A stretch of DNA of 64,000 nucleotides from Pristiophorus japonicus (Eukaryota). A program made the translations under genes and the position numbers. Shown here in pieces: positions 1-44,596 of this stretch (its first letter is position 1; each line of letters begins with the position of its first letter). Where the stretch lies: assembly GCF_044704955.1 (NCBI RefSeq), contig NC_091999.1, positions 46,500,001 to 46,564,000 on the forward strand. Reading direction: 5' to 3'. The notes under the pieces were generated by a model. That model worked only from the letters and a program-made list of their open reading frames with translations. It ran no database searches and had not been told where the DNA came from.

Positions 1-2259
1 CAGTTAATTCAGAGACCATGGTCCAGAACTTAAAGAAGGGTAACTTTGAAGGTATGAGGCGTGAATTGGCTAGGATAGATTGGCGAATGATACTGAAGGG
101 GTTGATTGTGGATGGGCAATGGCAGACATTTAGAGACCGCATGGATGAACTACAACAATTGTACATTCCTGTCTGGCGTAAAAATAAAAAAGGGAAGGTG
201 GCTCAACCGTGGCTATCAAGGGAAATCAGGGATAGCATTAAAGCCAAGGAAGTGGCATACAAATTGGCCAGAAATAGCAGCGAACCCGGGGACTGGGAGA
301 AATTTAGAACTCAGCAGAGGAGGACAAAGGGTTTGATTAGGGCAGGGAAAAAGGAGTACGAGAAGAAGCTTGCAGGGAACATTAAGACGGATTGCAAAAG
401 TTTCTATAGATATGTAAAGAGAAAAAGGTTAGTAAAGACAAACGTAGGTCCCCTGCAGTCAGAATCAGGGGAAGTCATAACGGGGAACAAAGAAATGGCG
501 GACCAATTGAACAAGTACTTTGGTTCGGTAATCACTGAGGAGGGCACAAACAACCTTCCGGATATAAAAGGGGTCGGAGGGTCGAGTAAGGAGGAGGAAC
601 TGAGGGAAATCCTTATTAGTCGGGAAACTGTGTTGGGGAAATTGATGGGATTGAAGGCCGATAAATCCCCAGGGCCTGATGGACTGCATCCCAGAGTACT
701 TAAGGAGGTGGCCTTGGAAATAGTGGATGCATTGACAGTCATTTTCCAACATTCCATTGACTGTGGATCAGTTCCTATGGAGCGGAGGGTAGCCAATGTA
801 ACCCCACTTTTTAAAAAAGGAGGGATAGAGAAAACAGGGAATTATAGACCGGTCAGCCTGACATGGGTAGTGGGTAAAATGATGGAATCAATTATTAAGG
901 ATGTCATAGCAGTGCATTTGGTAATAGGTAATATAACAAGTCCAAGTCAGCATGGATTTGTGAAAGGGAAATCATGCTTGACAAATCTTCTGAAATTTTT
1001 TGAGGATGTTTCCAATAGAGTGGACAAGGGAGCACCAGGTGATGTGGTATATTTGGACTTTCAGAAGGCTTTCGACAAGGTCCCACACAAGAGATTAATG
1101 TGCAAAGTTAAAGCACATGGGATTGGGGTAGTTTGCTGACATGGATTGAGAACTCGTTGTCAGACAGGAAGCAAAGAGTAGGAGTAAATGGGGACTTTTC
1201 ATAATGGCAGGCAGTGACTAGTGGGGTACCGCAAGGTTCTGTGCTGGGGCCCCAGCTGTTTACACTGTACATTAATGATTTAGATGAGGGGATTAAATGT
1301 AGTATCTCCAAATTTGCGGATGACACTAAGTTGGGTGGCAGTGTGAGCTGCGAAGAGGATGCTATGATGCTGCAGAGCGACTTGGATAGGGTGGGTGAGT
1401 GGGCAAATGCATGGCAGATAAAGTATAATATGGATAAATGTGAGGTTATCCACTTTGGTGATAAAAACAGAGAGACAGACTATTATCTGAATGGTGACAG
1501 ATTAGGAAAAGGGGAGGTGCAAAGAGACCTGGGTGTCATGGTACATCAGTCATTGAAGGTTGGCATGCAGGTACAGCAGGCGGTTAAGAAAGCAAATGGC
1601 ATGTTGGCCTTCATAGCGAGGGGATTTGAGTACAGGGGCAGGGAGGTGTTGCTACAATTGTACAGGGCCTTGGTGAGGCCACACCTGGAGTATTGTGTAC
1701 AGTTTTGGTCTCCTAACCTGAGGAAGGACATTCTTGCTATTGAGGGAGTGCAGCGAAGGTTCACCAGACCGATTCCCGGGATGGCGGGACTGACCTATCA
1801 AAAAAGATTGGATCAACTGGGCTTGTATTCACTGGAGTTCAGAAGAATGAGAGGGGACCTCATAGAAACGTTTAAAATTCTGACGGGTTTAGACAGGTTA
1901 GACGCAGGATGAATGTTCCCAATGTTGGGGAAGTCCAGAACCAGGGGACACAGTCTAAGGATAAGGGGGAAGCCATTTAGGACCGAGATGAGGAGGAATT
2001 TCTTCACCCAGAGAGTGGTGAACCTGTGGAATTCTCTACCACAGAAAGTTGTTGAGGCCAATTCACTAAATATATTCAAAAAGGAGTTAGATGAAGTCCT
2101 TACTACTAGGGGAATCAAGGGGTATAGTGAGAAAGCAGGAAGGGGGTACTGAAGTTGCATGTTCAGCCATGAACTCATTGAATGGCGGTGCAGGCTAGAA
2201 GGGCCGAATGGCCTACTCCTGCACCTATTTTCTATGTTTCTATGTTTCTATGTTTCTAT
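1..2259 (+). mobile_element. CR1 LINE, 3' part of ORF2 (RT), 3' UTR and (TTCTATGT)n tail; disrupted
   Basis: ORFs 18-1139/1214-1912/1913-2152 contain KSPGPDG, NYRPVSL, YLDFQKAFDKV, GVPQGSVLGP, KFADD; frameshift near 1130 and stops; 8-bp tail repeat at ~2228-2259. Confidence 0.97.
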
Positions 2260-3465: not shown

Positions 3466-4036
3466 CCTGTGTTCGGTTCTCAATGTATTGCTCAGTTATA
3501 TTCACTTTGTGTTCACGTTTTTACACTTCCCTGTAAATTGTTTTCCGTGAAATTGTTAATAAATCTGGAATGACAAATTGAAGTAACTTGGATTTTCTCC
3601 ATGGCTCCTGTACACCGCTCCATTTTTCCTGTCACACTGTGTTTTATTTGCCTGACAGGTATATTTCACCCGTCCTGTCTGGGTTGTGATTGAACCCAAG
3701 TCCCGTTGGTGAAGGACCCACGGGACCACCCAGTGTCCCATCGGATTAAAGACACCTCTACCACTGCCTTGTTGTATCCGGTTCCAGAGGCGGAATTACG
3801 GCACAACGACCAGGTGCACCATGCAGTCTCCTCTAATATTATGGTCTGTCACAGTCACATGGCAGGTTCTATTAAAAAACAGCACTCCGTTCCGTCACAG
3901 ATTGTCACAGTTCAGTACACGGCAGAGTAAGTCTACCTTTCACTGTCCCATCAAACTCTCCCAGGGCAGGTACATTACGGGTTAGAAATCTGATACAAAC
4001 GCTCAAGGTAGCACAACACCGGAGAATGGCCCCCAA

Positions 4037-4758
4037 GAGGGTGAGCCTGTGCTGGCGCAATAGGGTGAGCCTGTGCTGGCCCAATAGAATGAGCCAGGCT
4101 TGCCCAATAGGGTGAGCCCGAGCTGGCCGAACAGGGTGAGCCCGGGATGGCCCAATAGGGTGAGCACATGCTGGCCCAATAGGGTGAACCCATGCTGGCC
4201 CAATAGAGTGAACCGGGTTCGTCCAATTGGGCGAGCCCGGGCTGGCTCAATATGTCGAGCCCAGGCTGGCTCAACAGGGTGAGCCCAGGCTGGCCCAATA
4301 GGGTGAACCCGTGCTGGCCCAATAGGGTGAGACGGGCCTGCCCAATAGTGTGAGCCCTGGCTGGCCCAATAGGGTGAGCCCGAGCTGGCCGAATAGGGTG
4401 AGCCCGGGCTGGCCCAATAGGTTGAGCACATGCTGGCCCAATAGGGTGAACCCATGCTGGCCCAATAGAGTGAACCGGGTTGGTCCAATTGGGCGAGCCC
4501 GGGCTGGCTCAATATGTCGAGCCCAGGCTGGCTCAACAGGATGAGCCCAGGCTGGCCCAATAGGGTGAACCCATGCTGGCCCAATAGGGTGAGACGGGCC
4601 TGCCCAATAGTGTGAGCCCTGGCTGGCCCAATAGGGTGAGCCAGTGCTGGCACAATAGGGTGAGCCCAGGCTGGCCCATTAGGGTGAACCCGTGCTGGCC
4701 CAATAGGGTGAGACGGGCCTGCCCAATAGTGTGAGCCCGGGCTGGCCCATTAGCGTGA
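4037..4758. repeat. 24-bp minisatellite (GCTGGCCCAATAGGGTGAGCCCGG), ~30 units with an internal ~260-bp higher-order duplication
   Basis: Direct reading; variant aatatgtcgagc recurs at 4249 and 4511. Confidence 0.95.
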
Positions 4759-4759
4759 G

Positions 4760-5190
4760 ACAACAATCAGCACAACAAGGCTCCCTGTCAGGGGCTACTG
4801 ACCTGGTCACAAACATGTGTCCAATCAAACTGACAGACATGCTGAAGCCCCGCCCATCCATTATCCCTGCCCAAAGGGCCGCGCATGCGCCCCGAGACCC
4901 ACCCTAACCAAGATGGCGACCACTGAGCCCTCTCCCCCAACCTGACCAAGATGGCGGCCGCTGTGCCCGCTCCCCCGGGCGCTCACTGACTGGGCCTGGA
5001 ACCGGCCTGTGCTTCGGTTCTTGGTGACGAGCCCGGGTGTGTGTGAAGATGATGGTGCGGATTTTTGTCTCTCGGGCCTGGGCCCGCACTCTTGCTGTGT
5101 GTCCCGCCCTGGGTTTATTAACGCAGGGAACTATTGGTTCTGCACTTTGTGACTGACAGGCGACAAGCCCCGCCCCATCCGGGCCCGAAT
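4760..5190 (+). promoter_or_regulatory. CpG-rich promoter-like module (CCAAT, GC box, NRF1, two YY1 motifs)
   Basis: CCAATC ~4821, CCCCGCCC ~4848, GCGCATGCGC 4881-4890, AAGATGGCG ~4910 and CAAGATGGCGGCC ~4947; high CpG density. Confidence 0.7.
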
Positions 5191-5221
5191 CATTCCATGC
5201 ATGTGGTGCAGTGAAATAAAA

Positions 5222-6050
5222 CTGGCACTTCGGCTGGGGGAGGCATACACTGGGACTGGGGTAAGGCACTTCGAATGGGGGAGGCATGCACTGGGATTGG
5301 GCTAAGGCACTTCGGCTGCGCGATGCATACACTGGGACTGGGGTAAGGCATTTCAGATGGGGAGGCATGCACTGGGACTGGGGTAAGGCACTTCGGCTGG
5401 GAGAGGCGGGCACTGGGACTGCGGTAAGGCACATCGGCTGGGGGAGGCATGCACTTGGACTGGGGTAAGACACTTCAGCTGGGGGGGCATACGCTCGATC
5501 TGTGGTAAGGCACTTCAGCTGGGGGAGGCGTGCCCTGGGACTAGGGTAAGGCACTTGGGCTCTGGGAGGCATGCATTGGGAAAGGGGAAGGCACTTTAGC
5601 TGGGGTGGGGGCATGCACTGGACTGAAGTAAGGCACTTTGGCGGCGGGATGCATATACTGGGACTGGGGTAGGGCACTTCGGCTGGGGGAGGCATGCACT
5701 GGGACTGGTGTAAGGCACTTCGGCTGGGGACAGAATGCACTGGGACTGTGGTAAGGCACTTCGGCTGGAGGAGACTTCCCCCGCGACTGGGGTAAGGCAC
5801 TTTGGCTGGGGGTGGCATATACTGAGGTAAGGCACTTCGCCTAGGGGAGGCATATACTGGGACTGGGGTAAGGCACTTCGGCTGGGGGAGGCGGGCACTG
5901 GGACTGCGGTAAGGCACTTCAGATGGGGGAGGCATGCACTGGGACTGGGGTAAGGCACTTCGGCTGGGGGAGGCCTGAACTGCGACTGGAGTAAGGCACT
6001 TCGGCTGGGGAGGGGTGCACTGGGATTGGGGCAAGGCACTTTGGCTGGCA
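5222..6050. repeat. ~41-bp G-rich minisatellite (GTAAGGCACTTCGGCTGGGGGAGGCATGCACTGGGACTGGG), ~20 units
   Basis: taagg period of 41 nt (5262, 5303, 5344 ...). Confidence 0.93.
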
Positions 6051-6219
6051 GTCGCTGTCTTCTGGGAGCTCTGCCTCTGTTGTTTCAGGAAATTAAAGTG
6101 GATCAAGTTACAATTTGCAAGTCAGTGATACGTTGGGATGGGTGTTTTCAGTTACACATTCGAGTGAAACCTCAGGCTTTGGCTCATCCTCCAAAGGAAC
6201 CAATCATGGAAAATGGTTG

Positions 6220-6446
6220 GAACATGGCGGCCATTTTTGCAGTACAAATAAGCGCGTCCTTTATTAACTCGCTGCCTCCCTCCACCCATCTCTGACCCCC
6301 TGTCTCGCCCACTGAGCATGCTCAGCTCACACTGCCTGGCTGATTGATGGCAGCTCCCGACCAATAGGGAAAGCAGTTGAGGAGCTGGAGGACTGGGTGA
6401 GCGGTTAGTCTTCCAACCAATCGGCGTGTGCAAGTGGTGCGGCCCC
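6220..6446 (-). promoter_or_regulatory. ZNF-family CCAAT promoter module, copy 1, abutting the ERV 5' LTR
   Basis: catgctcagctcacactgcc..gattga..CCAATAG..ggaggac..CCAATC aligns with 51240-51370 and 23450-23580; overlapping YY1 sites aacatggcggccatttt at 6221. Confidence 0.65.
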
Positions 6447-6977
6447 TGTATTGTATAGGGTTAATCACATAGGGTTAATTATGATATTTCGACATTTACA
6501 GTGTGTTTCTGCTTCATGCCGAGTGGAATGTTGTTGATGCAGAGAGAGAGAGAGAGAACTTGATGCACACACCATCTTGTTTATGGGACGGTCGGCGCCT
6601 CGAGGTCTCATGCTTTGTGGAAGAACAGCTGGGGCCTTACTGATTAGGAGTTGGCCATAAGCCACATGCACCCATGTTTGTTCAATAGTATAAAGGAATG
6701 GAACTGTCCAGTAGCTCTTTTAACTTCAACTTGGACCGTGATTCGCGAGCGGTGCCGGGACCCCCAAGGCTCCAGACCAGCCATCGTTGTGGAGTTCCCG
6801 ATGGGCCGAAAGCTGTGAGCTTTGTTGCATCTTATCATACTTCTCTTTTCTTTGTAAACTGTATTATGTTTCTTTTCCCTCAGTAAACGGTGTTTTATCT
6901 TTACTTCATTTGTCGTGTCTCTTATTTAACATCCATCCAGATCCCGAACCTAGGTCTATTATTATCGATCCAAAAAA
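6447..6977 (+). repeat. ERV 5' LTR
   Basis: Begins TGTATTG; TATAAA ~6688; AGTAAA polyA-like ~6882; aligns end to end with 12294-12829. Confidence 0.93.
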
Positions 6978-7006
6978 TGTTGGTGTCATGAACAGGATCT
7001 GGTAAA

Positions 7007-8590
7007 ATGTTTAAGAGAAAAGACAAGGAGCAGTCTCCTCCTGCGGGAGAGAAGTATAGAATACCAGGGTGGAGCACGAGGGATGAGTGTTTTGGCTCTC
7101 TTGCCAATGTGCTAGCCCAGTTTCCACCCCTGCAACATTGGGATATGCAGTTATTGGAACAGAGCAAAGATAGAACCGTACCCCACGTGGTACTGTCTCT
7201 CCTGGAGGAAGCGGGCTTCCCACAGGAGAAAAGTAATCCCCCACAAATGGGATGGATTTTGTTGACAGCATTAAGGACGATGTGTAAACAACTTAAGGAA
7301 AGTGAGGCAGAAAACCTAGAGTTAAAAACAGCTGTTAAGTTTTTCGAAAATCAAAACTCGACTCTCACTGAAGCGGTCCGCAATGCACAACAACAGGTGG
7401 ACAAGCTCAATGAACAATCAGAAACTTTAATATGCCATCTGGTGACAGTACAACATTATTAAAAAGCCAGATGACGGAAATTACAGATAGATCGGTCAAA
7501 GGTACGTGCATTGGTAGCTGGACCCACTTGGGATCCGGCTCATTGGGAAGGAGACATCTGGTAATCCTCTGACTCAGAATATGAATGGTCAGATGGAGAG
7601 GGGGGGGAACGGGAGGAAACTAAAAACCCTCCCCCATATGATCCGAGCACGAAAGCTAAACCCTTATGATAAATAAGGCGAAACAGCAAGATGGGGAACA
7701 GCCGGTAACCACTAGAGGGGTGCGTGACTTCACCACTAGTGAGTTACAAGAAATAGGATCTCGATTTCGCCAAAAACCCGGGAATCATTGTCAGAATGGC
7801 TAACCCGGATTTGGGATCAGGGAGCATCAGGCGTAATATTTAACCCTGAAGAATTAACAAAAATGAGGACTATGATTACGGACCACCATATCACAGCAAT
7901 GCTACGGAATGTCCAGGGCACAAGTTCGCTATGGGACATGGTTACTATAGGGGTCCAGAAAAAAAATCCCTCCGCCATTGATTGGGAAGGGAAGGTAAAA
8001 CCTTGGAGTACTGTGCTGGAGGGTGTGATACAATTGTGCAAGATGGCAACACAGGGAAGAATATATCACCAACAATATGGGGGGCCAGATCAGGAGCTCT
8101 TTACGGCAGGAATGCGGAGCAGGCTGATGAAGAGGGATGCGCTACGTGCATTATTGGGACCAGCCCAAGAGAAGCGGGTGGGGGACGCTTTCCTGTTGTT
8201 AGGACAGTTAGAGGATGTCGAAGATAGTGTGCGAGAGTCGAGAACGGCTAATGTAGAGGGGAATCGGGACCAGCGACAAGGTTCGACCTCTGGGAAAGAT
8301 ATAAGGTCAGGAAAGACAAAAAAAAAAATTGTGCGGAGGGACATGTACGCGGCTTTACTGAAAGCAGGGGTCCCCAAGGAAAAAATTTATGGAATCCCAA
8401 CAGGAGCAATGTATTCTATGTGGAAGCAACACTGCGTCCCGGGAACAGGGAAGGTTAAAAGGAGGGAGGTAAGGGCGACTAAGTCGGATAGCGATAATCT
8501 GTGGATGCGGAGAAACCACCTCCCACTAGTCTATACCCCAGCGTAGAAGAGCTGTGGAAGGCTAGTAATCCCCTCGACTGGGTTGTGACT
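7007..8590 (+). pseudogene. gag: ERV gag, interrupted by stops and frameshifts
   Basis: ORFs 7007-7462 and 7788-8546; PPPY late-domain-like motif near 7627; RDFTTSELQEIGSRFRQKPG/EWLTRIWDQG resemble ERV-L Gag. Confidence 0.8.
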
Positions 8591-8599
8591 GGGATCCGG

Positions 8600-11500
8600 G
8601 AGTACTCCCTGTTAGAACCACGTCAACCCAAGTTCCCGGGGATCTGAGGCCACACATTCCAATTATGATACATTGGCGGGACGGGGGGGAACATACAAAG
8701 AGATGTTGCTTTACTAGACACAGGGGCAGAAGTTACTATTATCCATGGAAATCCTAGGAAACACACAGGGACCTGTATGATGATTAATGGGTTCGTGGGG
8801 CAGAAACGCCCGCTGTCCAAACAACTTTCAGAATGGCGGTGGGAAATTGGTCTCTGCGCTGGGTAACGGTATTAATATCGGCAGTAAAGGAACATATTAT
8901 TGGGATGGACCTTTTAAAGGGAACCACACACAACACCTCGTTCAGGCAATTTTCATTCGGGATACGGGCGAACACTGAGATTGCAGGGGAAGCAAAGTGG
9001 GAACAAGTGGTAATACCACAGCCATTGCATATAGTTACAATGAAACAGTACCAAATACCTGGGGGACACAAAGAAATAGAGGAAACCATACAAGGGCTCT
9101 TGGAGGCGGGAATCATTAGACATGTGGTGTCCCCCTACAATAGCCCTGTTTGGCGTGTGCAGAAACCCAACAAAAGTTGGAGGATGACTGTGGATTACCG
9201 ACAACTGAACAAATGTGCCCCTCCCCTGGCAACCGCTGTCCCAGATGTAGTAACTATAACAGAGCGGCTGTCTCAAGAAGTTGCGGAGTGGTATGCGGTA
9301 ATCGACCTGGCCAATGCCTTTTTCTCCATTCCAATAGCGGAAGAATCCCAGGACCAGTTTGCATTCACTTGTGAAGGGAGGCAATACAAGTTTAAAAGCC
9401 TACCTCAAGGTTACCTACATAGCCGTACCCTATGCCACGGATTGGTGGCCCGGGACCTGGTTGTGCACGTTGGCTCCTAATGTCTCACTGGCACAATACA
9501 TCGATGATGTACTAATGAGAAATCCCACCGAGGCTGTGGTGTCAGAAGCCCTAGCTACTTTAGTCCAACACATGTGAGATATGGGCTGGGAGATAAATCC
9601 GAAGAAGGTGCAGGGCCCTAGCCAGATTGTCCAGTTTCTGGGGATCCAATGGTCTCGGTGTGAGCGCATCATACCCGAGCCTGTGAAGAATAAAATTCAA
9701 GAAATGGCCACCTCCACGAATAAAGCTGAGGCACAATGGTTCGTGGGACTATTGGGTTACTGGAGGAGACATATACCTCACCTCACGATGCTTTTAAAAC
9801 CGTTGTATGCCGTAACACGAAAAAAGGCCCACTTCGAGTGGGGAAAGGAACAACAGGTGGCTTTTGATGCAGCCAAAGAAGCCGTAGCTCAAGCTTTACC
9901 CCTAGCCCCACGAGTGCCTGGACAGCCTTTTGAGTTACAGGTATCCGTTACCAATGATACTGCAGTATGAAGTTTGTGGCAGGTTCAACATGGCACTCGT
10001 ATACCGTTAGGGTTCTGGTCTAGAAAATTGACAGATGCTGCTGCTCGTTACACTCCATTTGAGAAAAAATTATTAGCGTGTTATTGGGCCATTACAAAAA
10101 CAGAAGGACAGACAGGGGACGACAAAGTCAATTTAAGACCAGACCTACCCATTTTATCGTGGGTTCTCTCAGAAAATGGGACACACAAGATCGGGCGAGC
10201 GCAGCAAAGCTCCATAGTGCGCTGGAAATGGTATATCGCAGACAGAGCAAGTAAAGGGAAAGAAGTAATCACCCGACTACATGAGCATGTGGCTGGATAC
10301 CCACAAACAGCTGAGAGTGAACTTACGCAGTCGTCTGTCAGTTTAAGCAAAGAGTCACCGATCCCCTGGGGCGTGCCTTTTGAACAGTTAACACCCGAAG
10401 AACGTAGCCATGCCTGGTTCACAGATGCCTCAGCGGTCTGGCGAAATGGCCTTCGGCGATGGCGAGCCACTGCCTTCAATACAAAAACCCAGACAATTGT
10501 GCATGATGAGGGCGTGGGAGGCTCCAGCCAGCAAGCCGAACTAGCAGCTGTAGTCCTTGCGTTAGAAGAGAAACGGCAACACGTACACATATATACTGAC
10601 TCAGGGGCAGTAGCCAATGGCATGGCGGGCTGAATGCGAAACTGGCATGAACATAACTGGCAAATAACGGGGAAAGACTTGTAGGGAAAGTACCTATGGG
10701 AACAAATATGGTCCAAAGCCCAGGAGATGAAAATAACTGTATATCATGTGGACACTCACATGAAAAACACTTCAAAGACCTCTGAATATAATAACACCGT
10801 TGATAATATAGCCCGGGTACGGGCTATCAAACAGGCGGAAGAGGAAGAATATGGCACAGGCAAGTGGGCCCACTACAAATCTAGACATTTGGGCATTCAG
10901 GGTACGATACAGTGGGCACGAAATGGGGGGGTTACATTTGACTACGGACGGTGTTAAATAGATCATAAATACCTGTGAAATGTGTCAAAAGGTGAAGCAT
11001 TTCCCCCTACAACGACAACCCGGTGCCATATTAAGAGAGGGACTCAACCAGCAGAAACATGGCAAGTTGATTATGTAGGACCTTTACCATTGCAACAACG
11101 GTTCCAATATTTGCTCACTGTTGTTGATACCTATTCTACATTTTTGATCGCTTAACCAGTGACTAAAGCGAATCAACAAAGTATGATTAAAGGACTGGAG
11201 AATTTAATCACATACTACGGTGAGCCAGCAGAAGTACAATCCGATAATGGGTCGCACTTCACAGGTCAAACAGTGCAACAGTGGGCGGTAGACAACGAGA
11301 TCTATTGGATGTTTCACATACCTTACTATCCGCAAGCTGCAGGGTTAATAGAACGCATGAATGGATTACTTAAGCAACAGATTAAAATATTAACTACCAC
11401 TAACACATTGCAAGGATGGTTAAAGGTCTTCCCACAAGCAGTGCGCAATCTGAATCACCGACCATTGTGGGGGGGAACTCCATAAGCCACATGTTAGGCA

Positions 11501-11706
11501 AAGTTAGTGTCCCTACTATTGAAAAAGGAAATCAGACTCAGGACACAGTTTGTGAAGGAGGAAAAGTGTGGGTGCAGTACCTCCAGAAACGCTTACAAGC
11601 AGGGGAAATCTTAGCGAAAGGAGAAGGAAACACTTATTGGGTGCTCCTGACCGGTCAATACATTCCTCTCTCTGTTGACAAGGGTAAATTGACTAAACGG
11701 GGCTGA
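8600..11706 (+). pseudogene. pol: ERV pro-pol (protease, RT, RNase H, integrase), multiply disrupted; no dUTPase seen
   Basis: LLDTGA at ~8711; ORF pieces 8833-9480, 9581-9970, 9974-10633, 10727-10957, 11159-11485; RNase H WFTDASA/SSQQAEL/HIYTDS; HHCC and DDE motifs. Confidence 0.93.
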
Positions 11707-11734
11707 ATTAATATAATTATGCTTCCTCCCACAG

Positions 11735-12269
11735 GAATTCTGCCCAAAATGGCGACCTACCAACTCGTGCTGGCCAGCATCTGTGTCTCGTTATCTGTGA
11801 CTGTGCTACTTCCATCCTCAAACCCAGCATCAAATGGCCATAAAGGGTGACGGTTAGGCTAACACTGATCGTACGCAAGACAATTACTAACCTTCCTCCC
11901 ATTGTAGACCTAACTCGTTAAGCTCAATTTCTAAAAGATAATCAAAAGGTTACTGACGAATTGAGCAAACGAGGGCGTACTCTTCATACTCTGCAAGTTG
12001 CTATGAGTTACAGTGAAGGCACCTTGGTCAGAGTTGCGACAACGATCACTGACCTTACAGTACACCATTGGTGGGACATCTTTTAAGGATGGTCCCCAAA
12101 AACATCCGCCACTTTGAAGCTGTTAATACATCCTATTGTTGTTTTACTCGTCCCGTTATTACTGATATTACTGCTTGTATGTATTCTTTGGTGTAGATTG
12201 CGGGCGTTGCTTGCGCATACACAACATGTAACTGATGCATTACGCCTTCAACTCGATTATAATACTTAG
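11735..12269 (+). pseudogene. env: ERV env remnant (internally deleted; TM anchor retained)
   Basis: Acceptor cttcctcccacag| at 11734, ATG 11749 with a hydrophobic leader; downstream frame reads ...VHHWWDIF*GWSPKTSATLKLLIHPIVVLLVPLLLILLLVCILWCRLR...*. Confidence 0.75.
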
Positions 12270-12293
12270 AATGTCTAAATTTCAAGGGTGGAT

Positions 12294-12829
12294 TGTATTG
12301 TATAGGGTTAATCACATAGGGTTAATTATGATATTCCGACACTTATAGTGTATATTCTGCTTCATGCCTCGTGGAATGTTGTTGATGCAGAGAGAGAGAG
12401 AGAGAGACCTTGATGCACACACCATCTTATTTATGGGACGATAAGCGCCTCGATGCTTCATGCTTTGTGGAAGAACAGCTGGGGCCTTACAGATTAGGAG
12501 TTGGCCATAAGCCACATGCACCCATGGTTTGTTCAATAGTATAAAGGAACGGAACTGTTCAGTAGCTCTTTGAATTTCACCTTGGACCGTGATTCGCGAG
12601 CGGTGCCGGGAGCCCCAAGGCTCCTGACCAGCTGTCGTTGCGGAGTTCCCGACGGGCCGAAGGCTGTGAGCTTTGTTGCATCTTATCATACTTCTCTTTT
12701 CTTCGTAAACTGTATGATGTTTCCTTTCTCTCAGTAAATGGTGTTTTATCTTTACTTCATTTGTCTTGTCTCTTATTTAACATTCATCCAGATCCCGAAC
12801 CTGGATCTATTATTATCAATCCAAACACA
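12294..12829 (+). repeat. ERV 3' LTR
   Basis: TGTATTG...ccaaaca(ca); roughly 90-93% identical to the 5' LTR by eye. Confidence 0.93.
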
Positions 12830-15339
12830 TGCTAGCACAAGTCGTTTACACAGGTTATACAATACAAGCAGCTTGTTGGAGCATAAAATGTTTCTGGCTT
12901 TCTCAAAAGCAATTACTTGTTTTATCCCCCCCATACCCAGTTCTCACTTTTACGCAATAACACATGTAGGGGCTCTAAGAGGGTGCTTAACCCCGATAGG
13001 AAGTTACCAAAATAGTTGAGGAGTCCCAGGAACGACCGCAGCTCCATGACGTTCTGTGGCCTGGGCGCGTTCCTGATAGCCTCTGTCTTGGCGTCTGTGG
13101 GCCGAATGCCGTCCGCCGCGATCTTTCTCCCCAAAAACTCCACTTCTGTTGCCATGAAGACGCATTTCGACCTCTTCAGCTGCAGCCCTACGCGATCCAG
13201 TCGCTGGAGGACCTCCTCCAGGTTTTGTAGGTGCTCGATGGTGTCCCGACCCGTGAACAATATGTCGTCCTGAAAAACCACCGTGCGTGGTACCGACTTG
13301 AGTAGGCTCTCCATGTTTCACTGGTGGATCGCTGCAGCCGATCGAATTCCAAAAGGACATCTGTTGTAGATGAACAGTCCCTTGTGCGTGTTAATGCAGG
13401 TGAGGCACTTCGAAGACTCCTCAAGCTCCTGCGTCATGTATGCCAAAGTCAGGTCGAGCTTGGTGAACGTCTTGCCTCCTGTCTGCGTCACAAATAGGTC
13501 GTCTGCCTTAGGTAGTGAGTATTGGTCCTGTAGCGAGAAATAATTAATAGTTCCTTTCTAATCGCTGCAAATCCTGACCGTGCTATCACTTTTGAGTACT
13601 GGAAAAATCGGGCTGGCCCACTCACTGAATTCCACTGGAGAGATGATGCCCTCACGTTGCAGCCTGTCCAGCCCGATTTCCACTCTCTCCCTCATCATGT
13701 GAGGTACCGCTCGGCCTTGTGGTGAATGGGCCGTGCCTCTCGGACCAAGTGGATAAACACCTTCGCCCCGGAAAAGTTTCCAATGCCTGGCTCAAAAAGG
13801 GAAAGACATTTTTAAGAACCTGGGTACACGAGGCCTGATCGACATGTGATAGCGCTCGGATGTCACCCAGTTCCAGCGGATTTTTCCCAGCCAGCTCCTT
13901 CCAAGCAGTGTGGGGCCATCGCCCAGGACAATCCAGAGTGGCAGTTCGTGCACCATGCCCTCGTTGGTGACCTTGACTATGGCACTGCCCAGGACAGTGA
14001 TGAGCTCTTTGGTGTACGTTCTCAGTTTCGTGTGCATGGGGCTCAGGGTTGGTATGAGTGCCATATTGCACCACAGTCTCTCAAACATCTTTTTACTCAT
14101 GATGGATTGGCTAGCACCAGTGTCCAGTTCCATGGCTATGGGTAAGCCATTGAATTTTACATTTAACAATATAGGTGGACATTTTGTCGAAAATGTGTGC
14201 AGCCCGTGTACTTCAGCATCTGCCTCCTCTCTCTGAGGCTTGAAATTGCTTTGTTCCACCATGGACCGATATTCCTCTGCCACGTGGTGGTCAGCAGGTT
14301 TAGCTGAACTTGCAGATCGTCTGCAAGCTCGTTGGAGGTGCCCCATTGTTCCACAGCTGTTGCAAACATACCCTTTGAACCGGAATGAATAGGCAGAATG
14401 GAAGCCTCCACAATGCCAACAAGGTGTTAATTGCCTTGCGGACTCTGAGTCATCTTGGTCACCTGAGGCTTGCTGGCAGTTGCAGACTCATGGTTTCTGC
14501 CCTGTACATTTCTGCTCGCAAACCCAGTTCCAGTTATGTATGAACATTGCTAGCACTTGTGTGCTGAGAGATTTGTTTGTTGTTATCATTGGTGGACATA
14601 AACGCCTGTGCTATTTCAATGGCATTACTAATGGTCGGTGTCTCTACAGTAAAAAGTTTTCATAGGATGGTCTCTTGGCCAATGGCCAGTAAAAAAAATT
14701 CTCTGAGCATCTGCTCCAGGTAGCCATCAAACTCACATTGTCCTGCAAGTCGCCTTAGCTCGGCGATGTAGCTCGCCACTTTCTGACCTTCAGATGGCTG
14801 GCACGTGTAGAACCGATACCTTGTCATCAGCACAATCTACCTCGGGTTAAGATGCTCCAGAACCAGTGTACACAGCTCCTCATATGACTTGTCTGTGGTT
14901 TCACTGGAGCCAGAAGATCCTTCATGAGGCTGTAGGTCGGTGCCCCGCAGACCGTGAGGAGGACGTTTCTCCTTTTTGCAGTGCTTCCTTCTCCGTCCAG
15001 CTCGTTGGCTACAAAGTACTGGTCTAGCCGTTCGCCATAGGCTTCCCAGTCCCCACTCTCCGAGCTCTGCTCCAGGATGCCTACAGTTTGCTGCATCTTT
15101 GTGTTGGATTCGTATTCTCGTCGCCAGTTATTGTGTTCCAAACACAGATGGGACTGCACACAGGGAGGTGAAAGTAATAGTGACCTCAGTCTTTATTAAG
15201 ACACTCCAGAGTGAGGAACAGACCGTAGGGGCCGGCTTATATACAGTGCTCCCAAGGCATGTTGGGATCCATTGGGATTTCAGGGGATGTGCTCCCTGGT
15301 GGCGAAGCATGGGAGTTCATGCTTTATAGATACACAACA
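12830..15339 (-). mobile_element. Ty3/Gypsy LTR retrotransposon, 5' half only (LTR, PBS, gag, protease, RT, start of RNase H); decayed
   Basis: ~210-bp LTR 15339-15128 (TGTTGTG..., TATA, AATAAA) then PBS TGGCGACGAG (tRNA-Ser-like); Gag DWEAYGERLDQYFVANEL; protease MELDTGAS; RT FQDDI, LRSFLGLLNYF; ends at KRLVLA. Confidence 0.9.
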
Positions 15340-16386
15340 ATCCCCCTCCCCCAATTCGGTCTTCCACACCTCCCACCCAACTCGGGTTCCCTCCCCTCCC
15401 ACACACCACCCCCGGTTTCGGGCTCCCTCCACTCCCGACTCGGACTCCTCCACCCTCCCCTTCCCCCGATTCGGGTTACTCCACCCTCCCCTCCCCCCCG
15501 ACTCTGGCTCCTCCCCTCCGCCCCAACTCGGACTCCTCTCGTTCCCCACAACTCAGGCTCCTCCCCTTCCCCTCCCCCCAAAAAACTCGGGCTCTCCACT
15601 CCTCCCGAAATAACTCGGGCTCTCCCCCTCCCCTCAAACTCGGGCATTCCCCCTCACTCTCCCTCTCCCCCAACTCGGTCTCGCCCCGTTTCCCTCTCCT
15701 CAACTCAAAATCTCAGCCTCCCCCTCTCCCTCAACTCTGGCTCGTCCCCTCCCTCTCTCCCCCAACTCGGGCTCTCCCCCTCCCACTCCCTCTCCCCCAA
15801 CTCGGGCCCCCCTCCCCCTCTCCCCCAACTCAGAATCTCACACTCCCCCTCTGCCTCAACTCGGGCTCTCCCCCTCCCTCTCTCCCCCAACTCGGGCTCT
15901 CCCCCTCCCTCTCTCCCCCAACTCAGGCTCTCCCCCTCCCTCTCTCCCCCGACCACGTCTCTCCCCCTCCCCCTCAATTCGGGCTCTCCCCCTCCCCCTC
16001 AATTCGGGGTCTCCTCCTTCCCCTCTCCCCAACTCGGGCTCTCCCCATCCCCCCGCCCCCAACTCGGGCTCTCCCCCTCTGCGGGCTCTCCCTCTCCACC
16101 CCTCTCCCCTCCCCCAGCTCGGTCTTTCTCCTTTCCTCTCTCCCCCATCTCGGGCTCCCCCAACTCGGGCTCCCCCAACTCGGGCTCTTCCTCTCCCACA
16201 ACCCGGGCTCTCCCCCTCCCCCTCTCTCCCAACGACATCTTTCCCCCTTCCCCAATCCCGGCTCTCCACTTCCCCCTCTCTCCCAACCCCGTCTCCCCCC
16301 CTCCCCCAACCGCGGACTCTCCCCCTCCCCCTCTCTCCCAACATGGGCTCTCCCCCTCCCCCAACTCGGGCTCTCCCCCTCCCCCC
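15340..16386. repeat. Degenerate pyrimidine-rich tandem repeat (CCCCAACTCGGGCTCTCCCCCT core)
   Basis: Direct reading; strong strand asymmetry. Confidence 0.9.
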
Positions 16387-16915
16387 TGAAGGTGCTGACT
16401 CTGGCTGGGTTCAGTTCTACACTCACTGGTTCCCCTCCCCTGAAGTGCTGACACTGGTTGGGTTCAGTTCTACACTCACTGGTTCCCTTCCCCTGAAGGT
16501 ACTGACTCTGGCTGTGTTTAGTTTTACACTCACTGGTTCCCCTCCCCTGAAGTGCTGACACTGGTTGGGTTCAGTTCTACACTCACTGGTTCCCTTCCCC
16601 TGAAGGTACTGACTCTGGCTGGGTTCAGTTCTACACTCACTGTTTCCCCTCCCCTGAAGTGCTGACACTGGTTGGGTTCAGTTCTACACTCACTGGTTCC
16701 CCTCCCCTGAAGTGCTGTCTCTAGCTGGGTTCAGTTCTACACTCACTGGTTCCCCTCCCCTGAAGGTACTGACTCTGGCTGGGTTCAGTTCTACGCTCAC
16801 TGGTTCCCCTCCCCTGAAGTGCTGTCTCTAGCTGGGTTCAGTTCTACACTCACTGGTTCCCCTCCCCTGAAGGTACTGATTCTGGCTGGGTTCAGTTCTA
16901 CACTTCCTGGCTCCC
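16385..16915 (-). repeat. 53-54-bp ZNF-associated minisatellite, ~10 units
   Basis: CTGACTCTGGCTGGGTTCAGTTCTACACTCACTGGTTCCCCTCCCCTGAAGGT. Confidence 0.95.
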
Positions 16916-20384: not shown

Positions 20385-21335
20385 TCACTTGTGAACTCGC
20401 AGGTGTCTGAGCAGGTTGTATGGGGCAGTGAATCCCTTCCCACAGACGGAGCAGGTGAACGGCCTCTCCCCAGTGTGAACTCGCTGGTGTGTCAGCAGGT
20501 TGTATGGGGCAGTGAATTGCTTCCCACAGATGGAGCAGGTGAACGGCCTCTCCCCAGTGTGAGCGCGTTGGAGTTTCCTCAAATCATTTCTGCTTTTAAA
20601 ACTCTTCTCACAGTCAGAACATTTAAACGGTTTCTTATTGGTGTGAACAAGTTGGTGTGCCAGCAGGTTGGATGAACAAGTGAATCCCTTCCCACACACG
20701 GAGCACATGAATGGCCACTCCCCAGTGTGAGGTGGCTGGTGTGTCAGTTCGCTGGATGAATCACTGAATCCCTTCCCACACATGGAGCAGGTGAACGGCC
20801 TCTCCTCGGTATGTACTCGCTGGTGTCTCAGCAGGTGGGATGGCCAATTGAATCCTTTCCCATACTCTGACCAGGTGAACGGCCTCTCCCCAGTGTGATT
20901 GCGCTTGTGAATTTCCAGCTCAGACGGGTAACTGAATCCCTTCCCACAGTCTCCACATTCCCACGGTTACTCCATGGTGCTGGTATCCTTGTGTCTCTCC
21001 AGATTGGTTGATCAGTTGATGCCTCGCCAACACACAACACGTTTACAGATTCTCTGCGCTGTGAATGGTGCGCTGTTTTTTCAGGCTATGTAACTGGTTA
21101 AAGCTCTTTCCAAAGGCAGTGCACGGGAACACTTTCACTCGTCTGTGTGTGTCTCGGTGCTTTTGAAGTCACACTGATGTTTGAAATATTTGCCCACAGG
21201 CAGAACAGACAAACATTTCTCCTTCCACATTCAAAGGCCGATGATATTCATGTTGCGGTGGATCAAGTGACTCTGTGAGATCTTGGTGATGTTTGGTTCC
21301 AGTTTCTCATCTGCAAATCCTTCCCTTCTAATACC
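20385..21335 (-). pseudogene. C2H2 zinc-finger exon A (7 fingers, some degenerate); family ATG at 20975 followed by GAG TAA
   Basis: Acceptor aaactcctttttcag| at 21336; TGERPF linkers; ORF 20385-20783 from an internal ATG. Confidence 0.88.
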
Positions 21336-21529
21336 CTGAAAAAGGAGTTTACAAAAGTCATCTCTGTAAGGACAGGATATAAATTCAGAACAGTCAATTT
21401 TGGTTTCTGTGGTACACATATTCCTCTCTAGTTTCCCCACAAATGTAAATCCCTAACCCACACACTATCCCTACTCCCCATGCTGAAATCCAAACCCATT
21501 ACATCATCACCAACATTTTTTCCTTCTTG

Positions 21530-21995
21530 CTGAAGGTGCTGACTCTGGCTGGATTCAGTTCTACACTCACTGGTTCCCCTCCCTCTTCTCCGCTGAAAGT
21601 GCTGACACTGGCTGGGTTCAGTTCTACACTGACTGGTTCCCCTCCCTCTCCTCCCCTGAAGGTGCTGACTCTGGCTGGGTTCAGTTCTACACTCACTGGA
21701 TCCCCTCCCTCTCCTCCCCTGAAGGTTCTGACTCTGGCTGGGTTCAGTTCTACACTCACTGGATCCCCTCCCTCTCCTCCCCTGAAGGTGCTGACTCTGG
21801 CTGGGTTCAGTTCTACACTCACTGGATCCCCTCCCTCTCCTCCCCTGAAGGTGCTGACTCTGGTTGGGTTCAGTTCTACACTCACTGGTTCCCCTCCCTC
21901 TCCTCCCCTGAAGGTGCTGACACTGGCTGGGTCAGTTCTACACCCACTGGTTCCCCTCCCTCTCTTCCCCTGAAGGTGCTGGCTCTGGCTGGGTT
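21530..21995 (-). repeat. 63-bp variant of the ZNF-associated minisatellite, ~7 units, ~200 bp upstream of the ZNF-A acceptor
   Basis: 21-aa periodic ORFs 21499-21885 and 21527-21973. Confidence 0.95.
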
Positions 21996-23039: not shown

Positions 23040-23660
23040 TGTCACAGGTCTCACCAGCAGCTGCGCTGCCTGATGGGTGATTGACAGCCGACAGTCTGCG
23101 CATGTGCACCGATAACCATGTCCGGCACAGCACCCCATCTCGGTCGATATCGGTAATAACCGCGCATGCCCAGGGGACACCAACCGCCGCCTCCCCCCCA
23201 CACTCGGAGCTGCGCCTGCTCACTCGGATCCTGTGGTGTGGAGTCAGCACAGCACCTTCCGGGGAAAGGCGTTTGTGTCTGTTAAGAGCCATGAGCGGTG
23301 ATGCAAAGTAAGTTTTCTCCGCTCCGATTGTGTAGGGAATTGCACGGGGGGGATAGGGAGAGAATAGAGGGAGATCCAAACCCGAGAGTCCGCCCATCCG
23401 GGTCCCCGAGAACAGTTTCCACCAGTTTGGCGGAGCGCGCTTGAGGGACACGTGACCCGGGCCTGATTGACAGGAGCTTCCGACCAATGCGGAGCGAGTG
23501 GGGCGGGGCTGGAGAAGCGAGCTGGCGGAGGGTCCTCCAACCAATCGGGGAGCCCGAGAGGCGGGATTTGTGCCGCTGATTGTCTGAGCCGCAGGGCACG
23601 ACCTTGTGCAGTCCCTTGTTCAGGGCCTGGGGCCAGGGGAGGCGATGGGCCTTTATTGTG
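23040..23660. promoter_or_regulatory. CpG island, candidate bidirectional promoter, includes promoter-module copy 2
   Basis: NRF1-like ctgcgcatgtgca (~23096) and cgcgcatgc (23161), CACGTG, CCAAT boxes, GGGGCGGGGC; + strand donor AAA|GTAAGT ~23308, - strand donor G|GTGAGA ~23054. Confidence 0.65.
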
Positions 23661-25027: not shown

Positions 25028-28000
25028 ACCAAAAACATAAAGTAAAAAAAAAAAGTTGAAATCGAAGTGTGACGTCACAGCCAAGCAGGTAAGTGATTGG
25101 CTGGTGGATTGATGAGTATTTTTTTTCTTTAAGAAATCTTTGGTTAGGAACTGCAATTAAATATTTGTGATCTTTTTTATCTGAGGAGAACCAGTTAATT
25201 AAATTGGCTCTGTGCTGAAACAGTTTGGGTGGAAATAATGAATAATAAAGGCAAACCCCACAGATTAAAAGGGTACAGGAGGATAGGGAATTGGTGACCG
25301 TCGCGCACAAGAGTATGGCCAGGCAGGTTGTGCAGAAGTCCCCTGAGACTATCCCGCTCTCAAACCGGTACTCTATTCTGACTACTGGCGATGGCGGTGA
25401 TGACTCTGGGGAGTGCAGCCAGGGCCAAGTCCACAGCACCGTGGGTGGCTCAGCTGCACAGGGGGGGAGGAAGAAAACGGGAAGGGCTATAGTGATAGGA
25501 GATTCAAGAGTTAGGGGAGCAGATCGGCGCTTCTGCGGCAGCAAAAGTGACATCAGGATGGTGTGTTGCCTCCCTGGTGCAAGGGTCAATGATGTAACTG
25601 AGCGACTGCAGGGCATTCTGGGGAGGGAAGGGGAATAGCCAGTGGTTGTGGTCCACATTGGTACCAACGACATAGGTAGAAAGAGGGGTGAGGTCCTGAA
25701 AGCTGAGTTTAGGGAGCTAGGGGTAAGATTGAAAGCAAGGACCTCAAAGGTGGTAATCTCGGGATTACCACCAGTGCCACGTACTAGTGAGGGTAGAAAT
25801 AGGAAGGCTAGTCAGATAAATACGTGGCTGGGGCATTGGTGTAGGAGGGAGGGCTTTAGTTTCCTGAACAATTGGGACCGCTTCTGGAGTAGGTGTGATC
25901 TGTACAAGTCGGACAGGTTACACCTCAAGAGAGACGGGACCAATGTTCTCGCGGGTGGTTTTGATAGTGCGGTTGGAAGGGCTTTAAACTAGCTTGGCAG
26001 GGGGATGGGAACCCAGGAGAGGGCTCTGAGCTAGTTAGAGTGGTTGAGAGCTCAGATGAACAGAACCCCAAGAAAGGATGCAAAAGGCAGGCGGCAACAG
26101 AGCAGAGCAGCACTGGAGTAAGTGTAAACCACAAGGTGATAGGAAGGGACAATATGAATGAATATAAAGGGGTTGCAGGAGGGGTCAAAACTTAAAATCA
26201 TGGTTTTAAAACGAGTATTAAAACGCTTTACCTAAACGCACGCAGCATTCGAAACAAAGTAAATGAGTTGATGGCACAAATCATTACAAATGGGTATGAT
26301 TTGGTGGCCATCATAGAAACGTGGTTGCAGGGTGGCCAAGACTGGGAATTAAACATGCAGGGGTATCTGACAATTCGGAAAGATAGACAAGAAGAGAAAG
26401 GAGGTGGGATAGCTCTGTTAATAAAGGATGATATCAGGGCAGTTGTGGAGACGATATTGGCTCTAATGAACAAAAAGTTGAATCATTGTGGGTGGAGATT
26501 AGAGATAGTAAGGGAAAAAAGTCACTGGTGGGCGTATTTATAGGTCCCCAAATAATAACTTCACGGTGGGGCGGACAACAAGCAAGGGAATAATGGAGGC
26601 ATGTGAAAAAGGAACGGCAGTAATCATGGGGGATATTAACCCACATATCGATTGGTCAAATGGGGTAGCCTTGAGGAGGAATTCATAGAATGCATATGGG
26701 ATTGTTTCTTCGAACAGTATGTTAGAGAAGCAACAAGGGAGCAAGCTATCTTATATCTGGTCCTGTGTAATAAGACAGGAATAATAAATGATCTCCCAGT
26801 AAATGATCCTCTTGGAATGAGTGTTCACAGTATGGTTCAATTTGTAATACAGATTGAGGGTGAAGAAGTAGTGACTCAAAGGAGCATACTATGCTTAAAC
26901 AAAGGGGACTATAGTGGGATGAGGGCAGAGTTGGGTAAAATAGACTGGGAACACAGACTAAACGGTGGCACAATTGAGGAACAGTGGAGGACTTTTGAGG
27001 AGCTCTTTCATAGTGCTCAACAAAAATATATTTCAGTGAAAAAGAAGGGCGTGAAGAGTAGGGATAATCAGCCGTGGATAACCAAGGAAATAAAGGAGAG
27101 TATCAAATTAAAATCCAATGCGTATAAAGTGGCCAAGGTTAGTGGGAAACTAGAAGATTGGGAAAATTTTAAATGACAGCAAAGAATGACTAAGAAAGCA
27201 ATACAGAAATGAAACATAGATTACGAAAGTAAAATTGCGCAAAACATAAAAACAGATAGTAAAAGCTTTTACCAATATATAAAACGGAAAAGAGTGACTA
27301 AAGTAAATGTTGGTCCGTTAGAAGATGAGAACGGGGATTTAATAATGGGAAATGTGGAAATGGCTGAGACCTTAAACAATTATTTTGCTTCGATCTTCAC
27401 AGTGGAAGACAAAAAAACCATGCCAAAAATTGATGGTCACGGAAATGTGGGAAGGGAGGACCTTGAAACAATCACTGTCACTAGGGGGGTAGTGCTGGAC
27501 AGGCTGATGGATCTCAAGGTAGACAAGTCCCCTGTTCCTGATGAAATGCATCCCAGTGTATTAAAAGAGATGGCGGAAGTTATAGCAGATGCATTCGTTA
27601 TAATCTACCAAAATTCTCTGGACTCTGGGGAGGTACCATCGGATTGGAAAGCAGCTAATGTAACGCCTCTGTTTAAAAAAGGGGGCAAACAAAAGGCAGG
27701 TCACGATAGGCCGGTTAGTTTAACATCTGCAGTGGGGAAAATTCTTGAAGCTATCATTAAGGAAGAAATAGGGGGACATTTAGATCGGAATTGTGCAATC
27801 AAGCAGACGCAACATGGATTCATGAAGGAGAAATCATGTTTAACTAATTTACTGGAATTCTTTGAGGATATAACGAGCATGGTGGATAGAGGTGTACCGA
27901 TGGATGTGGTGTATTTAGATTTCCAAAAGGCATTTGATAAGGTGCCACACAAAAGGTTACTGCAGAAGATAAAGGTACGCGGAGTCAGAGGAAATGTATT

Positions 28001-29097
28001 AGCATGGATAGAGAATTGGCTGGCTAATAGAAAGCAGAGAGTCGGGATAAATGGGTCCTTTTCGGGTTGGAAATCGGTGGTTAGTGGTGTGCCACAGGGA
28101 TCGGTGCTGGGACCACAACTGTGTACAATATACATAGATGATCTGGAAGAAGGGACAGAGTGTATTGTAAAAAAATTTGCAGATGACACAAAGATTAGTG
28201 GGAAAGCGGGTTGTGTAGCGGACGCAGAGAGGCTGCAAAGAGATTGAGATAGGTTAAGCGAATGGGCTAAGGTTTGGCAAATGGAATACAATGTCGGAAA
28301 ATGTGAGGTCATCCACCTTGGGGAAAAAAAAACAGTAAAAGGGAATATTATTTGAATGGGCAGAAATTACAAGATGCTGTGGTGCAGAGGGACCTGGGGG
28401 TCCTTGTGCATGAAACTCAAAAAGTTAGTTTGCAGATGCAGCAGGTAATCAGGAAGGCGAATGGAATGTTGGCCTTCATTGCGAGAGGGATGGAGTACAA
28501 TAGCAGTGAAGTGCTGCTGCAACTGTACAGGGTATTGGTGAGGCCGCAGCTGGAGTACTGCGTGCAGTTTTGGTCACCTTAGTTAAGGAAGGATGTACTG
28601 GTTTTGGAGCGGGTACAGAGACGATTCATGAGGCTCATTCTGGAGATGAGGGGGTTACCTTATGACGATAGATTGAGTAGACTGGGTCTTTACTCGTTGG
28701 AGTTCAGAAGGATGAGGGGTGATCTGATAGAAACATTTAAAATAATGAAAGGGATAGACAAGATAGAGGCAGAAAGGTTGTTTCCACTGGTCAGGGAGAC
28801 TAGAACTAGGGGGCACAGCCTCAAAATACGGGGGAGCCAATTTAAAACCGAGTTGAGAAGGAATTTCTTCTCCGACAGGGTTGTGAATCTGTGGAATTCT
28901 CTTCCCAAGGAAGCAGTTGAGGCTAGCTCATTGAATTTATTCAAGTCACAGATAGATTTTTAATCAATAAGGGAATTAAGGGTTATGGAGAGCGGGCGGG
29001 TAAGTGGAGCTGAGTCCACTGCCAGATCAGCCATAATCTTGTTGAGTGGCGGAGCAGGCTCGAGGGGCCAGATGGCCTACTCCTGTTCCTAATTCTT
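24155..29097 (+). mobile_element. Near-full-length CR1 LINE (5' monomers/UTR, ORF1 esterase, ORF2 APE-RT), disrupted
   Basis: ORF1 pieces 25291-25992 (IVIGDS, HIGTND, D.LHL: SGNH esterase); ORF2 pieces 26228-28990; 3' end cctactcctgttcctaattctta. Confidence 0.93.
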
Positions 29098-29099
29098 AA

Positions 29100-29869: not shown

Positions 29870-30152
29870 AAACCCTGACTAAGAACCTAGAGCTCTCACG
29901 TTTGCAGCTCCGGGACATTTCACAGGAACAGGCCCAGGTTGGCCGCCTTTGTAAAGGAACGCCGCAAGTTTGTGCATCGCTATCGCTGTTCATCGAGCTG
30001 CAGAGCGCATGTGTGGCCATCTTTGTAAATGAACACAGAGTGCTTGGGTCTTCAGGGTCCCAGTGAGTATAGAAGTGAACCCAGCCAGAGTCAGCACCAT
30101 CAGGGGAGGAGAGGAAGGTGAACCAGTGAGTGTAGAACTGAACCCAGCCAGA
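29870..30152 (+). promoter_or_regulatory. Candidate promoter/first exon of ZNF-B ending at donor CCA|GTGAGT (30063), which is the first unit of the 54/63-bp repeat
   Basis: gcgcatgtg, YY1 GCCATCTT at ~30016, then ~1.5 repeat units in sense orientation. Confidence 0.6.
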
Positions 30153-30351
30153 GTTGCTGGGGAAAACTGGGAGTGGAGGATAAAATGTCTTGAGACGTGC
30201 GATGGGTTTGGATTTCAGCACAGGGAGGAGGCAGCGATTTACAGCTTTGGAGGAGCAAGAGAAGAAAAAATGTTCCATCGAAACTAGAATTTACTGTTTT
30301 GAATGTTTTTCCTGTACTTATGGTGATGAGATCTGTAAACTCCTTTTACAG

Positions 30352-30870
30352 GGTATTCAAAGGATTTGGAGACGGAAAACTCAAACCAAACATCACACCA
30401 AGATCTGACGGAGTCACTTGATTCCTCAGGACCTGAATATCATCGGCCTTTTAATATAGAAGGAGAAATATTTGTCTGTTCTGCCTGTGGGAAAAATTTC
30501 AAATATCAGTGTGACTGGAGAAGCACTGAGACACACACACCCAAGTGAGTGTTCCAGTGCACTGACTGTGGAAAGAGCTTTAACCAGTTACACAGCCTGA
30601 AAAAACATTTTACCATTCACAGCGGGGAGAACCGTACACGTGGTGTGTGTGGACCAGGCTTCAACTGATCATCCAACCTGGAGAGACACAAGGATACCTG
30701 CACCATGGAGAAACCGTGGAAATGTGGGGACTGTAGGAGGGGATTTAGTTCCCCATCTAACCTGGATATTCATCAGCGCAGTCACACCAGGGGAAGGGAT
30801 TCACTTGGTCATCCCACCTGCTGACACACCAGCGATTTCACACTGGGGAGAGGCTTTCTGCTGCTGAACT
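30352..30870 (+). pseudogene. C2H2 zinc-finger exon B, truncated/frameshifted after the first finger
   Basis: Acceptor aaactccttttacag| at 30351; ATG 30705 [27 protein letters not shown] then a deletion and frameshift. Confidence 0.88.
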
Positions 30871-43073: not shown

Positions 43074-43199
43074 CTGCAAAAAGTGTTTACAAAAGTCATC
43101 ACTGGAAGTGCAGGATCGAAATTCAACAGAGACAATTCTAGTTTCTATGGAACATTCTTTCCTTCTGCTGTGTGGTTTTAAGTATTGACTTAATAAAAA

Positions 43200-44500: not shown

Positions 44501-44596
44501 ATGATTTTGAGGAATAGACAAAATATCTAAGCATTGATAAATGCATCATCTAACATCTCCAACTGAGCTAACCTGCTGTAACTATGTCAGTATTTG

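Follow-up and report, generated by a model that had tools for sequence, protein, structure and literature searches.

A broken two-LTR provirus of the ERV-L/ERV-S group in the genome of the shark Pristiophorus japonicus

Introduction

Does a shark chromosome carry a genuine two-LTR member of the ERV-L/ERV-S group of class III retroviruses and, if so, does it extend the host range of that group? The question is raised by a locus within a 64-kb stretch of Pristiophorus japonicus contig NC_091999.1; this whole stretch is called the window below, and all coordinates are positions in it. A first-pass annotation, made from the sequence alone, had read the locus as a class III provirus resembling ERV-L in Gag, reverse transcriptase (RT), one tether word and the polypurine tract (PPT). 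It differed from ERV-L, on that reading, in showing no dUTPase after integrase (IN) and in keeping an env remnant. The lineage was taken to be best known from amniotes, and a shark copy was accordingly thought to widen its host range or raise its age, or to indicate transmission between vertebrate classes.

Provirus structure

The element and its immediate flanks contain the following features:

6299..6443, + strand: left flank, CCAAT-rich dispersed repeat with paralogs near 51225-51368 and 23463-23548
6447..6976, + strand: 5' LTR, 530 nt, TG start, terminal CA decayed; TATAAA at 6689, polyA-like AGTAAA at 6882, (GA)n tract
6981..6998, + strand: primer-binding site (PBS) of the HERV-S (serine) type
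7007..8645, + strand: gag, ERV-L/Fv1-like, broken; ATG at 7007, 3' end uncertain
8647..9048, + strand: protease (PR) region; DTG at 8717-8725
9049..9907, + strand: RT; LPQG at 9400, YIDD at 9497-9508
9908..10840, + strand: tether (degenerate RNase H) and RNase H; AQQSSIVRWKWYI at 10199-10237 in the tether
10841..11706, + strand: IN; HHCC at 10868 and 10974, D-D-E at 11063, 11240 and 11348
11707..12283, + strand: predicted short env-like remnant, 577 nt, with signal-like and anchor-like stretches
12284..12293, + strand: PPT with T spacer, ERV-L type
12294..12827, + strand: 3' LTR, 534 nt, TG...CA; TATAAA at 12540, AGTAAA at 12733
12828..14487, - strand: Gypsy retrotransposon (gag-PR-RT), cut at its RT/RNase H junction exactly at the 3' LTR

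Alignment of the two LTRs gives 493 identical positions, 37 mismatches, of which 25 are transitions and 7 lie at CpG, and 4 gap columns. They are about 7% apart (K2P = 0.074), and TATAAA and AGTAAA lie at equivalent places in both. The simplest end of the 3' LTR is 12827, against 12829 in the first-pass annotation. Pfam identified PR, RT, tether, RNase H and rve domains between the LTRs, the protease match being weak (E 0.004), and the domain order is PR-RT-tether-RNase H-IN. The acidic motifs of RNase H are at 10418, 10532, 10592 and 10796, and the C-terminal tail of IN adjoins the core directly. Gag carries PPPY at 7628 and LYPxV at 8531. Searches with Rfam and ARAGORN gave no match within the 64-kb window.

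The coding regions are interrupted throughout. Stops occur in gag at 7460, 7472, 7562, 7667 and 7670, with frame changes near 7680, 7780 and 8500; the protease region changes frame near 8685 and 8790, and RT changes frame near 9460-9487 and has a stop at 9575. The tether and RNase H contain stops at 9968, 10631 and 10682, while IN changes frame near 10955, 11025 and 11480 and has a stop at 11153. With stops and frame changes in every gene, this copy is unable to encode a working virus. We conclude that the locus is a broken fossil retrovirus, a real two-LTR provirus of the ERV-L/ERV-S group, and in this respect the first-pass annotation was correct.

Insertion context and copy number

No target-site duplication (TSD) was detected: among 7 x 16 choices of end, no exact match of 4-6 nt occurred; the missing 5-bp TSD is read as a later rearrangement of the window copy. 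The 5' LTR begins 3 nt past the end of the CCAAT-rich repeat, which is perhaps a promoter unit of zinc-finger genes. On the other side, the Gypsy element abutting the 3' LTR is very high-copy in 4 of 4 runs, and its other half (RNase H and IN) is not in the 64-kb window. Because there is no TSD and the LTR ends lie in different contexts, the window copy is probably a recombinant of two insertions. It is somewhat unlikely that the flank mismatch reflects an assembly join or a one-sided deletion instead. Satellites, LINE copies and duplicated zinc-finger genes abound in the window, and among the contigs listed no piece covers the whole element, but both junctions fall exactly at LTR ends, as expected of recombination within proviruses and rare for random deletion.

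The window as a whole looks like a duplicated zinc-finger cluster. Paralogous C2H2 pieces at 20385-21636, 30060-30854 and 42292-43166 are 77-81% alike, with a first-finger pattern that we take to be common in shark genomes. Young CR1-type LINEs at 32603-36293 (- strand), 60310-64000 (+) and 1-2259 (+) are 95-97% alike and include an 893-aa open ORF2 stretch; older copies lie at 26295-29098 and 43218-47366. Minisatellite arrays occupy 4008-4831, 5173-6092, 15338-16400, 48864-51138, 53400-56050 and 58832-59473, with units of ~24, 41, 31, 22 and 27 nt among them.

The family is multi-copy. In one run, 10-52 different contigs were found at the listed internal positions of the element and 3 at one post-pol position, numbers to be read with the proviso that summed contig depth does not equal copy number. 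Long contigs from another sample and under a second organism label differ from the window copy by ~4-5% (51/1308; 76/1686). The LTR distance was dropped as a direct date owing to the missing TSD. Taken together, the 7.4% between LTRs and the ~4% to other contigs suggest that each copy has decayed by roughly 4%. With the rate of 2.2e-10 assumed by Han (2015; PMC4422223) this would amount to ~170 million years, with faster rates to tens of millions, and the age is only loosely constrained.

Class III features

The PPT word occurs a single time in the 64-kb window, at 12284, abutting the 3' LTR. It differs by one G from that of four MERV-L loci, with the T spacer and the TGTA start of the LTR alike, so the ERV-L-type PPT of the first-pass annotation is upheld. 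The PBS agrees at 16 of 18 letters with a HERV-S PBS typed 'S' in Table S1 of Vargiu et al. (2016; PMC4724089), the two differences falling at one CpG-type site, and it differs from the MERV-L PBS. Of the 20 rows compared, 9 contain a counterpart of the tether word AQQSSIVRWKWYI; these are all ERV-L-like (mouse MERV-L, stingray, lizard, frog, caecilian, bichir and seahorse), and the class I, class II, Gypsy and duck rows of the set lack it. Element gag matches MERV-L gag by tblastn (E 2e-12 and 3e-15; 25-31% identical), and no CCHC-finger word was found in the three gag frames scanned. The claimed likeness to ERV-L is thus borne out by gag, YIDD and the tether word.

Pfam found no dUTPase in the element, in agreement with the first-pass annotation. 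The spacer between IN core and tail measures ~25 aa in the element, 29 aa in two stingray rows and 145-159 aa in 13 other rows, which take in the dUTPase-bearing MERV-L. A 1308-nt contig from another sample covers the dUTPase site without insertion (51 differences, 3 gap letters), so the absence is not private to the window copy. The missing dUTPase does set the element apart from MERV-L and HERV-L, but as a trait it was already known from HERV-S; the retrieved part of Vargiu et al. (2016; PMC4724089) gives HERVS, HERVL32 and HERVL66 as lacking one.

Comparison with named elements gives a mixed picture. MERV-L and HERV-L share YIDD, the tether word, the IN tail, the PPT and the lack of a Gag zinc finger with the element, but have a dUTPase, no env and mostly a leucine or methionine PBS; the Pol parts of MERV-L are 47-56% identical to those of the element. 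HERV-S and ERV-S share the serine-type PBS, the missing dUTPase and, putatively for the element, an env. The HERV-S env, as given in the retrieved text, is class I with an ISD, whereas none is visible in the element remnant, from which most of an env-length gene is missing. Frog XtERV-S, described by Yedavalli et al. (2021; PMC8278194), is likewise of class III and from outside the amniotes, with ERV-L-like gag-pol, a serine PBS and YIDD, but it encodes a dUTPase and a gamma-type env, is flanked by a 5-bp TSD and has its genes intact; the retrieved part of that paper does not mention sharks. In its markers the shark element is ERV-S-like; the serine PBS, the env-like tail and the lack of a dUTPase set it apart from ERV-L proper.

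Phylogenetic placement

A read-through of RT-C/RNase H (X at breaks) returned ERV-L-like Pol proteins as 9 of 23 matches in the longer length class, at 45-51% identity and E below 1e-124, and named vertebrate class III rows as 9 of 13 matches in its own length class. A foamy virus RT in the PDB scored only E 2e-19. Related Pol proteins came from stingray, bichir, mudskippers, seahorse, toadfish, frog, caecilians, lizards, turtle, birds and mouse. The nearest overall is a family of the stingray Hemitrygon akajei (RT-N 70%, RT-C/RNase H 51%, IN 58%, gag ~31%); the highest RT-N identity, 72%, is to a row that groups with lizards. The Hemitrygon cluster has 13 RefSeq members (P0004, P0024-P0035), several of them gag-only models of 214-549 aa that carry the automatic name Fv1-like, and P0066 represents a further family of the same stingray.

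Two trees were built, with class I, class II and Gypsy row labels assigned from Pfam domains and tree position, and with rows that include no labelled HERV-L, HERV-S, XtERV-S, SnRV, foamy or Rh_ty_ERV3 Pol. For a quick tree of 59 rows and 287 columns, 107 proteins matching both RT halves were reduced to 58 by length filters and removal of 13 near-duplicates. It recovered a clade (SH-aLRT 94) of the element with MERV-L, amphibian rows, one further row and two stingray families, in which the element is sister to the stingrays (84). A careful tree of 32 hand-picked rows and 593 columns (LG+G4) recovered an ERV-L-like clade at 90/98 and joined the element to the two stingray families at 81/87, unstarred. 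The element is not nested among the amniote rows and lies far from class I and Gypsy; its nearest row over 576 columns is a stingray (58%). Placement with Gypsy, epsilon/gamma or class II elements was ruled out by the trees.

AU tests, on groups chosen after the tree was seen, rejected the element with class I (p-AU 3e-9). Its grouping with avian class III was borderline (0.041), and grouping with a teleost/amphibian clade (0.064) or with MERV-L (0.073) was not rejected. A tetrapod clade was rejected (2e-8). Teleost rows (mudskipper, seahorse, toadfish) and amphibian rows form a 100/100 clade contrary to the host tree (P0051, P0053, P0054, P0056, P0002, P0008 and P0050, most with dUTPase), which likely reflects a fish-amphibian host switch. 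On these placements the element is assigned to the ERV-L/ERV-S group of class III (HSERVIII; clade Huo of Xu et al.), as first annotated. By the same protein relationships the lineage is not amniote-centred, its relatives being spread over teleosts, bichir, amphibians, squamates and turtles.

Published relatives

A close published relative is also from a shark and, with the stingray elements, points to a cartilaginous-fish host. In S2 Fig of Xu et al. (2018; PMC6001957), the tips at the head of clade Huo, retrieved as label order and not as branching, are Rh_ty_ERV3 (whale shark), No_fu_ERV1, HERVL, Nan_par_ERV9, Murine_ERVL and HERVS. The comparison with Rh_ty_ERV3 covers the gag part in the first 400 letters of its S2 Data record. 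Aligned by eye to the window gag from ~7780, 53 of 116 residues are identical, ungapped, with identical runs of up to ten, as are 32 of 39 bases at the record start. This gag is closer than any protein from the searches, but ~46% identity in the visible part points to the same lineage and a distinct family. The Hemitrygon akajei families, nearest in both trees, share the missing dUTPase, the domain order and a gag named Fv1-like; they differ in that Pol parts are only 51-70% identical and that they are known here from proteins alone. According to the retrieved text of Xu et al. (2018; PMC6001957), clade Huo infected all major vertebrate lineages with frequent host switches, and Rh_ty_ERV3 is not discussed in the retrieved main text. 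In the retrieved part of Han (2015; PMC4422223), elephant shark yielded only SnRV-like and epsilon-like lineages.

No published description of the family was found in the literature searched, for stingray and whale shark class III or ERV-L elements among others, nor in the retrieved parts of PMC4977317, PMC8922424, PMC8672886, PMC12690878, PMC13524379 and PMC10536682. The same holds for the retrieved part of bioRxiv 10.1101/2021.11.23.469661, whose supplements may list chondrichthyan elements. The viral contigs searched contained no relative of the element. Metagenomes gave 5 loci, four of them MERV-L (99.7% to P0006) and one a 1.6-kb fragment, and an env for comparison was absent from all 5.

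The element probably represents a new family. Since a whale-shark relative is already published, it does not extend the host range, and RefSeq members from stingray, bichir, teleosts and amphibians likewise run against the extension first proposed. Prior description, one of the two outcomes that the first-pass annotation had named as counting against its reading, thus applies in large part to the lineage through Rh_ty_ERV3; the other, RT grouping with epsilon, SnRV or Gypsy clades, is contradicted by the trees as far as epsilon and Gypsy are concerned.

Region downstream of pol and origin of the lineage

The stretch from pol to PPT is 577 nt long in the element, against ~138 nt in MERV-L. It opens with a pyrimidine tract and AG at 11720-11734 that is acceptor-like, followed by an ATG at 11749 and a signal-like hydrophobic stretch from 11764. 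Near its end an anchor-like stretch at 12135-12191 reaches KD 3.39, a value attained in 0 of 500 Markov nulls. The reading is interrupted by stops and one frame change. Most of an env-length gene is missing, and no CX6CC, CWLC-type, furin or ISD-like words were found in the post-pol frames. These frames gave no relevant Pfam match, 0 matches among 210 proteins and 0 of 1154 candidates in a weak word-based search; four short words taken from them likewise had no match in supplementary records of 400 letters, a comparison that carries little information. Post-pol length varies among copies, as shown by contig joints and ends that concentrate at 11884-11941. One contig under a second organism label matches the window as far as 11885 and then continues with ~108 letters that do not align there; others jump from 11884 or 11941 toward the PPT. 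In anatomy alone, the stretch is laid out like an env from which most of the middle part has been deleted. The env remnant of the first-pass annotation therefore stands as probable, by anatomy and not by homology. Comparable tails may be present in avian class III elements.

The remnant might represent what survives of a native class III envelope. The fuller proposal, that sharks and rays own an old dUTPase-less ERV-L/S branch which co-diverged with its hosts and retained its native class III envelope of non-gamma type, now a deleted relic, is unlikely as a whole. It is consistent with the single group of shark-type and ray elements (81/87), both without dUTPase, and with the missing gamma-type words. 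It also fits the retrieved part of Vargiu et al. (2016; PMC4724089), in which the class III envs found were all class I and the original HERV-L env was unidentified. Against it, shark-ray support is modest and the wider tree contradicts host relationships, as seen in the amphibian-teleost clade and the rejected tetrapod clade; in a remnant this short gamma motifs were possibly deleted, and none of the 1154 candidates was a homolog.

A distinctly improbable reading is that the stretch is a captured or decayed fragment of an unrelated membrane protein in a family that was always env-less, like ERV-L. The failure to match any env family agrees with this, as does the sole Pfam match in the post-pol frames, TMEM169 (sub-threshold, hydrophobic, E 5e-4). 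The stretch nevertheless has the layout of an env: it lies in the expected place and orientation, opens with an acceptor-like tract, an ATG and a signal-like segment, and ends in an anchor-like segment just ahead of the PPT. It also exceeds its MERV-L counterpart in length. Highly improbable is a cross-class jump of an ERV-L from an amniote (mammal or squamate) into the shark: the PPT close to MERV-L, the HERV-S-like PBS, the 72% RT-N match and the host switching reported for clade Huo are in its favor, but the best tree joins the element to stingrays and does not nest it in amniote rows, gag is less similar to MERV-L than to whale shark, and nearby amniote rows have a dUTPase.

Conclusions

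We conclude, with a probability of roughly 0.85, that the locus is one copy, inactivated by mutation, of a multi-copy class III ERV family in a dUTPase-less elasmobranch sub-lineage that includes Rh_ty_ERV3 and two stingray families. In the predicted life cycle, transcription would start in the 5' LTR, priming would occur on serine tRNA, Gag and Gag-Pol would be made from one RNA, plus-strand synthesis would be primed at the ERV-L-type PPT, and env would come from a spliced message. Most likely the family reached the germ line as an enveloped virus, then lost most of env by deletion and spread within the genome by retrotransposition; the window copy has decayed by ~4% since and is probably a recombinant between two insertions.

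The finding adds a two-LTR, multi-copy family to a shark ERV-L/S branch published so far only as one tip of a supplementary tree. By combining a HERV-S-type PBS and a MERV-L-type PPT with a short env-like tail and no dUTPase, the element helps to establish the order in which dUTPase was gained and env lost in this group. The finding would be weightier if the tail were a non-gamma envelope. If sharks and rays do own such a branch with its native envelope, the element would reveal the look of the exogenous ERV-L ancestor, and the lineage might then be dated to the divergence of sharks and rays.
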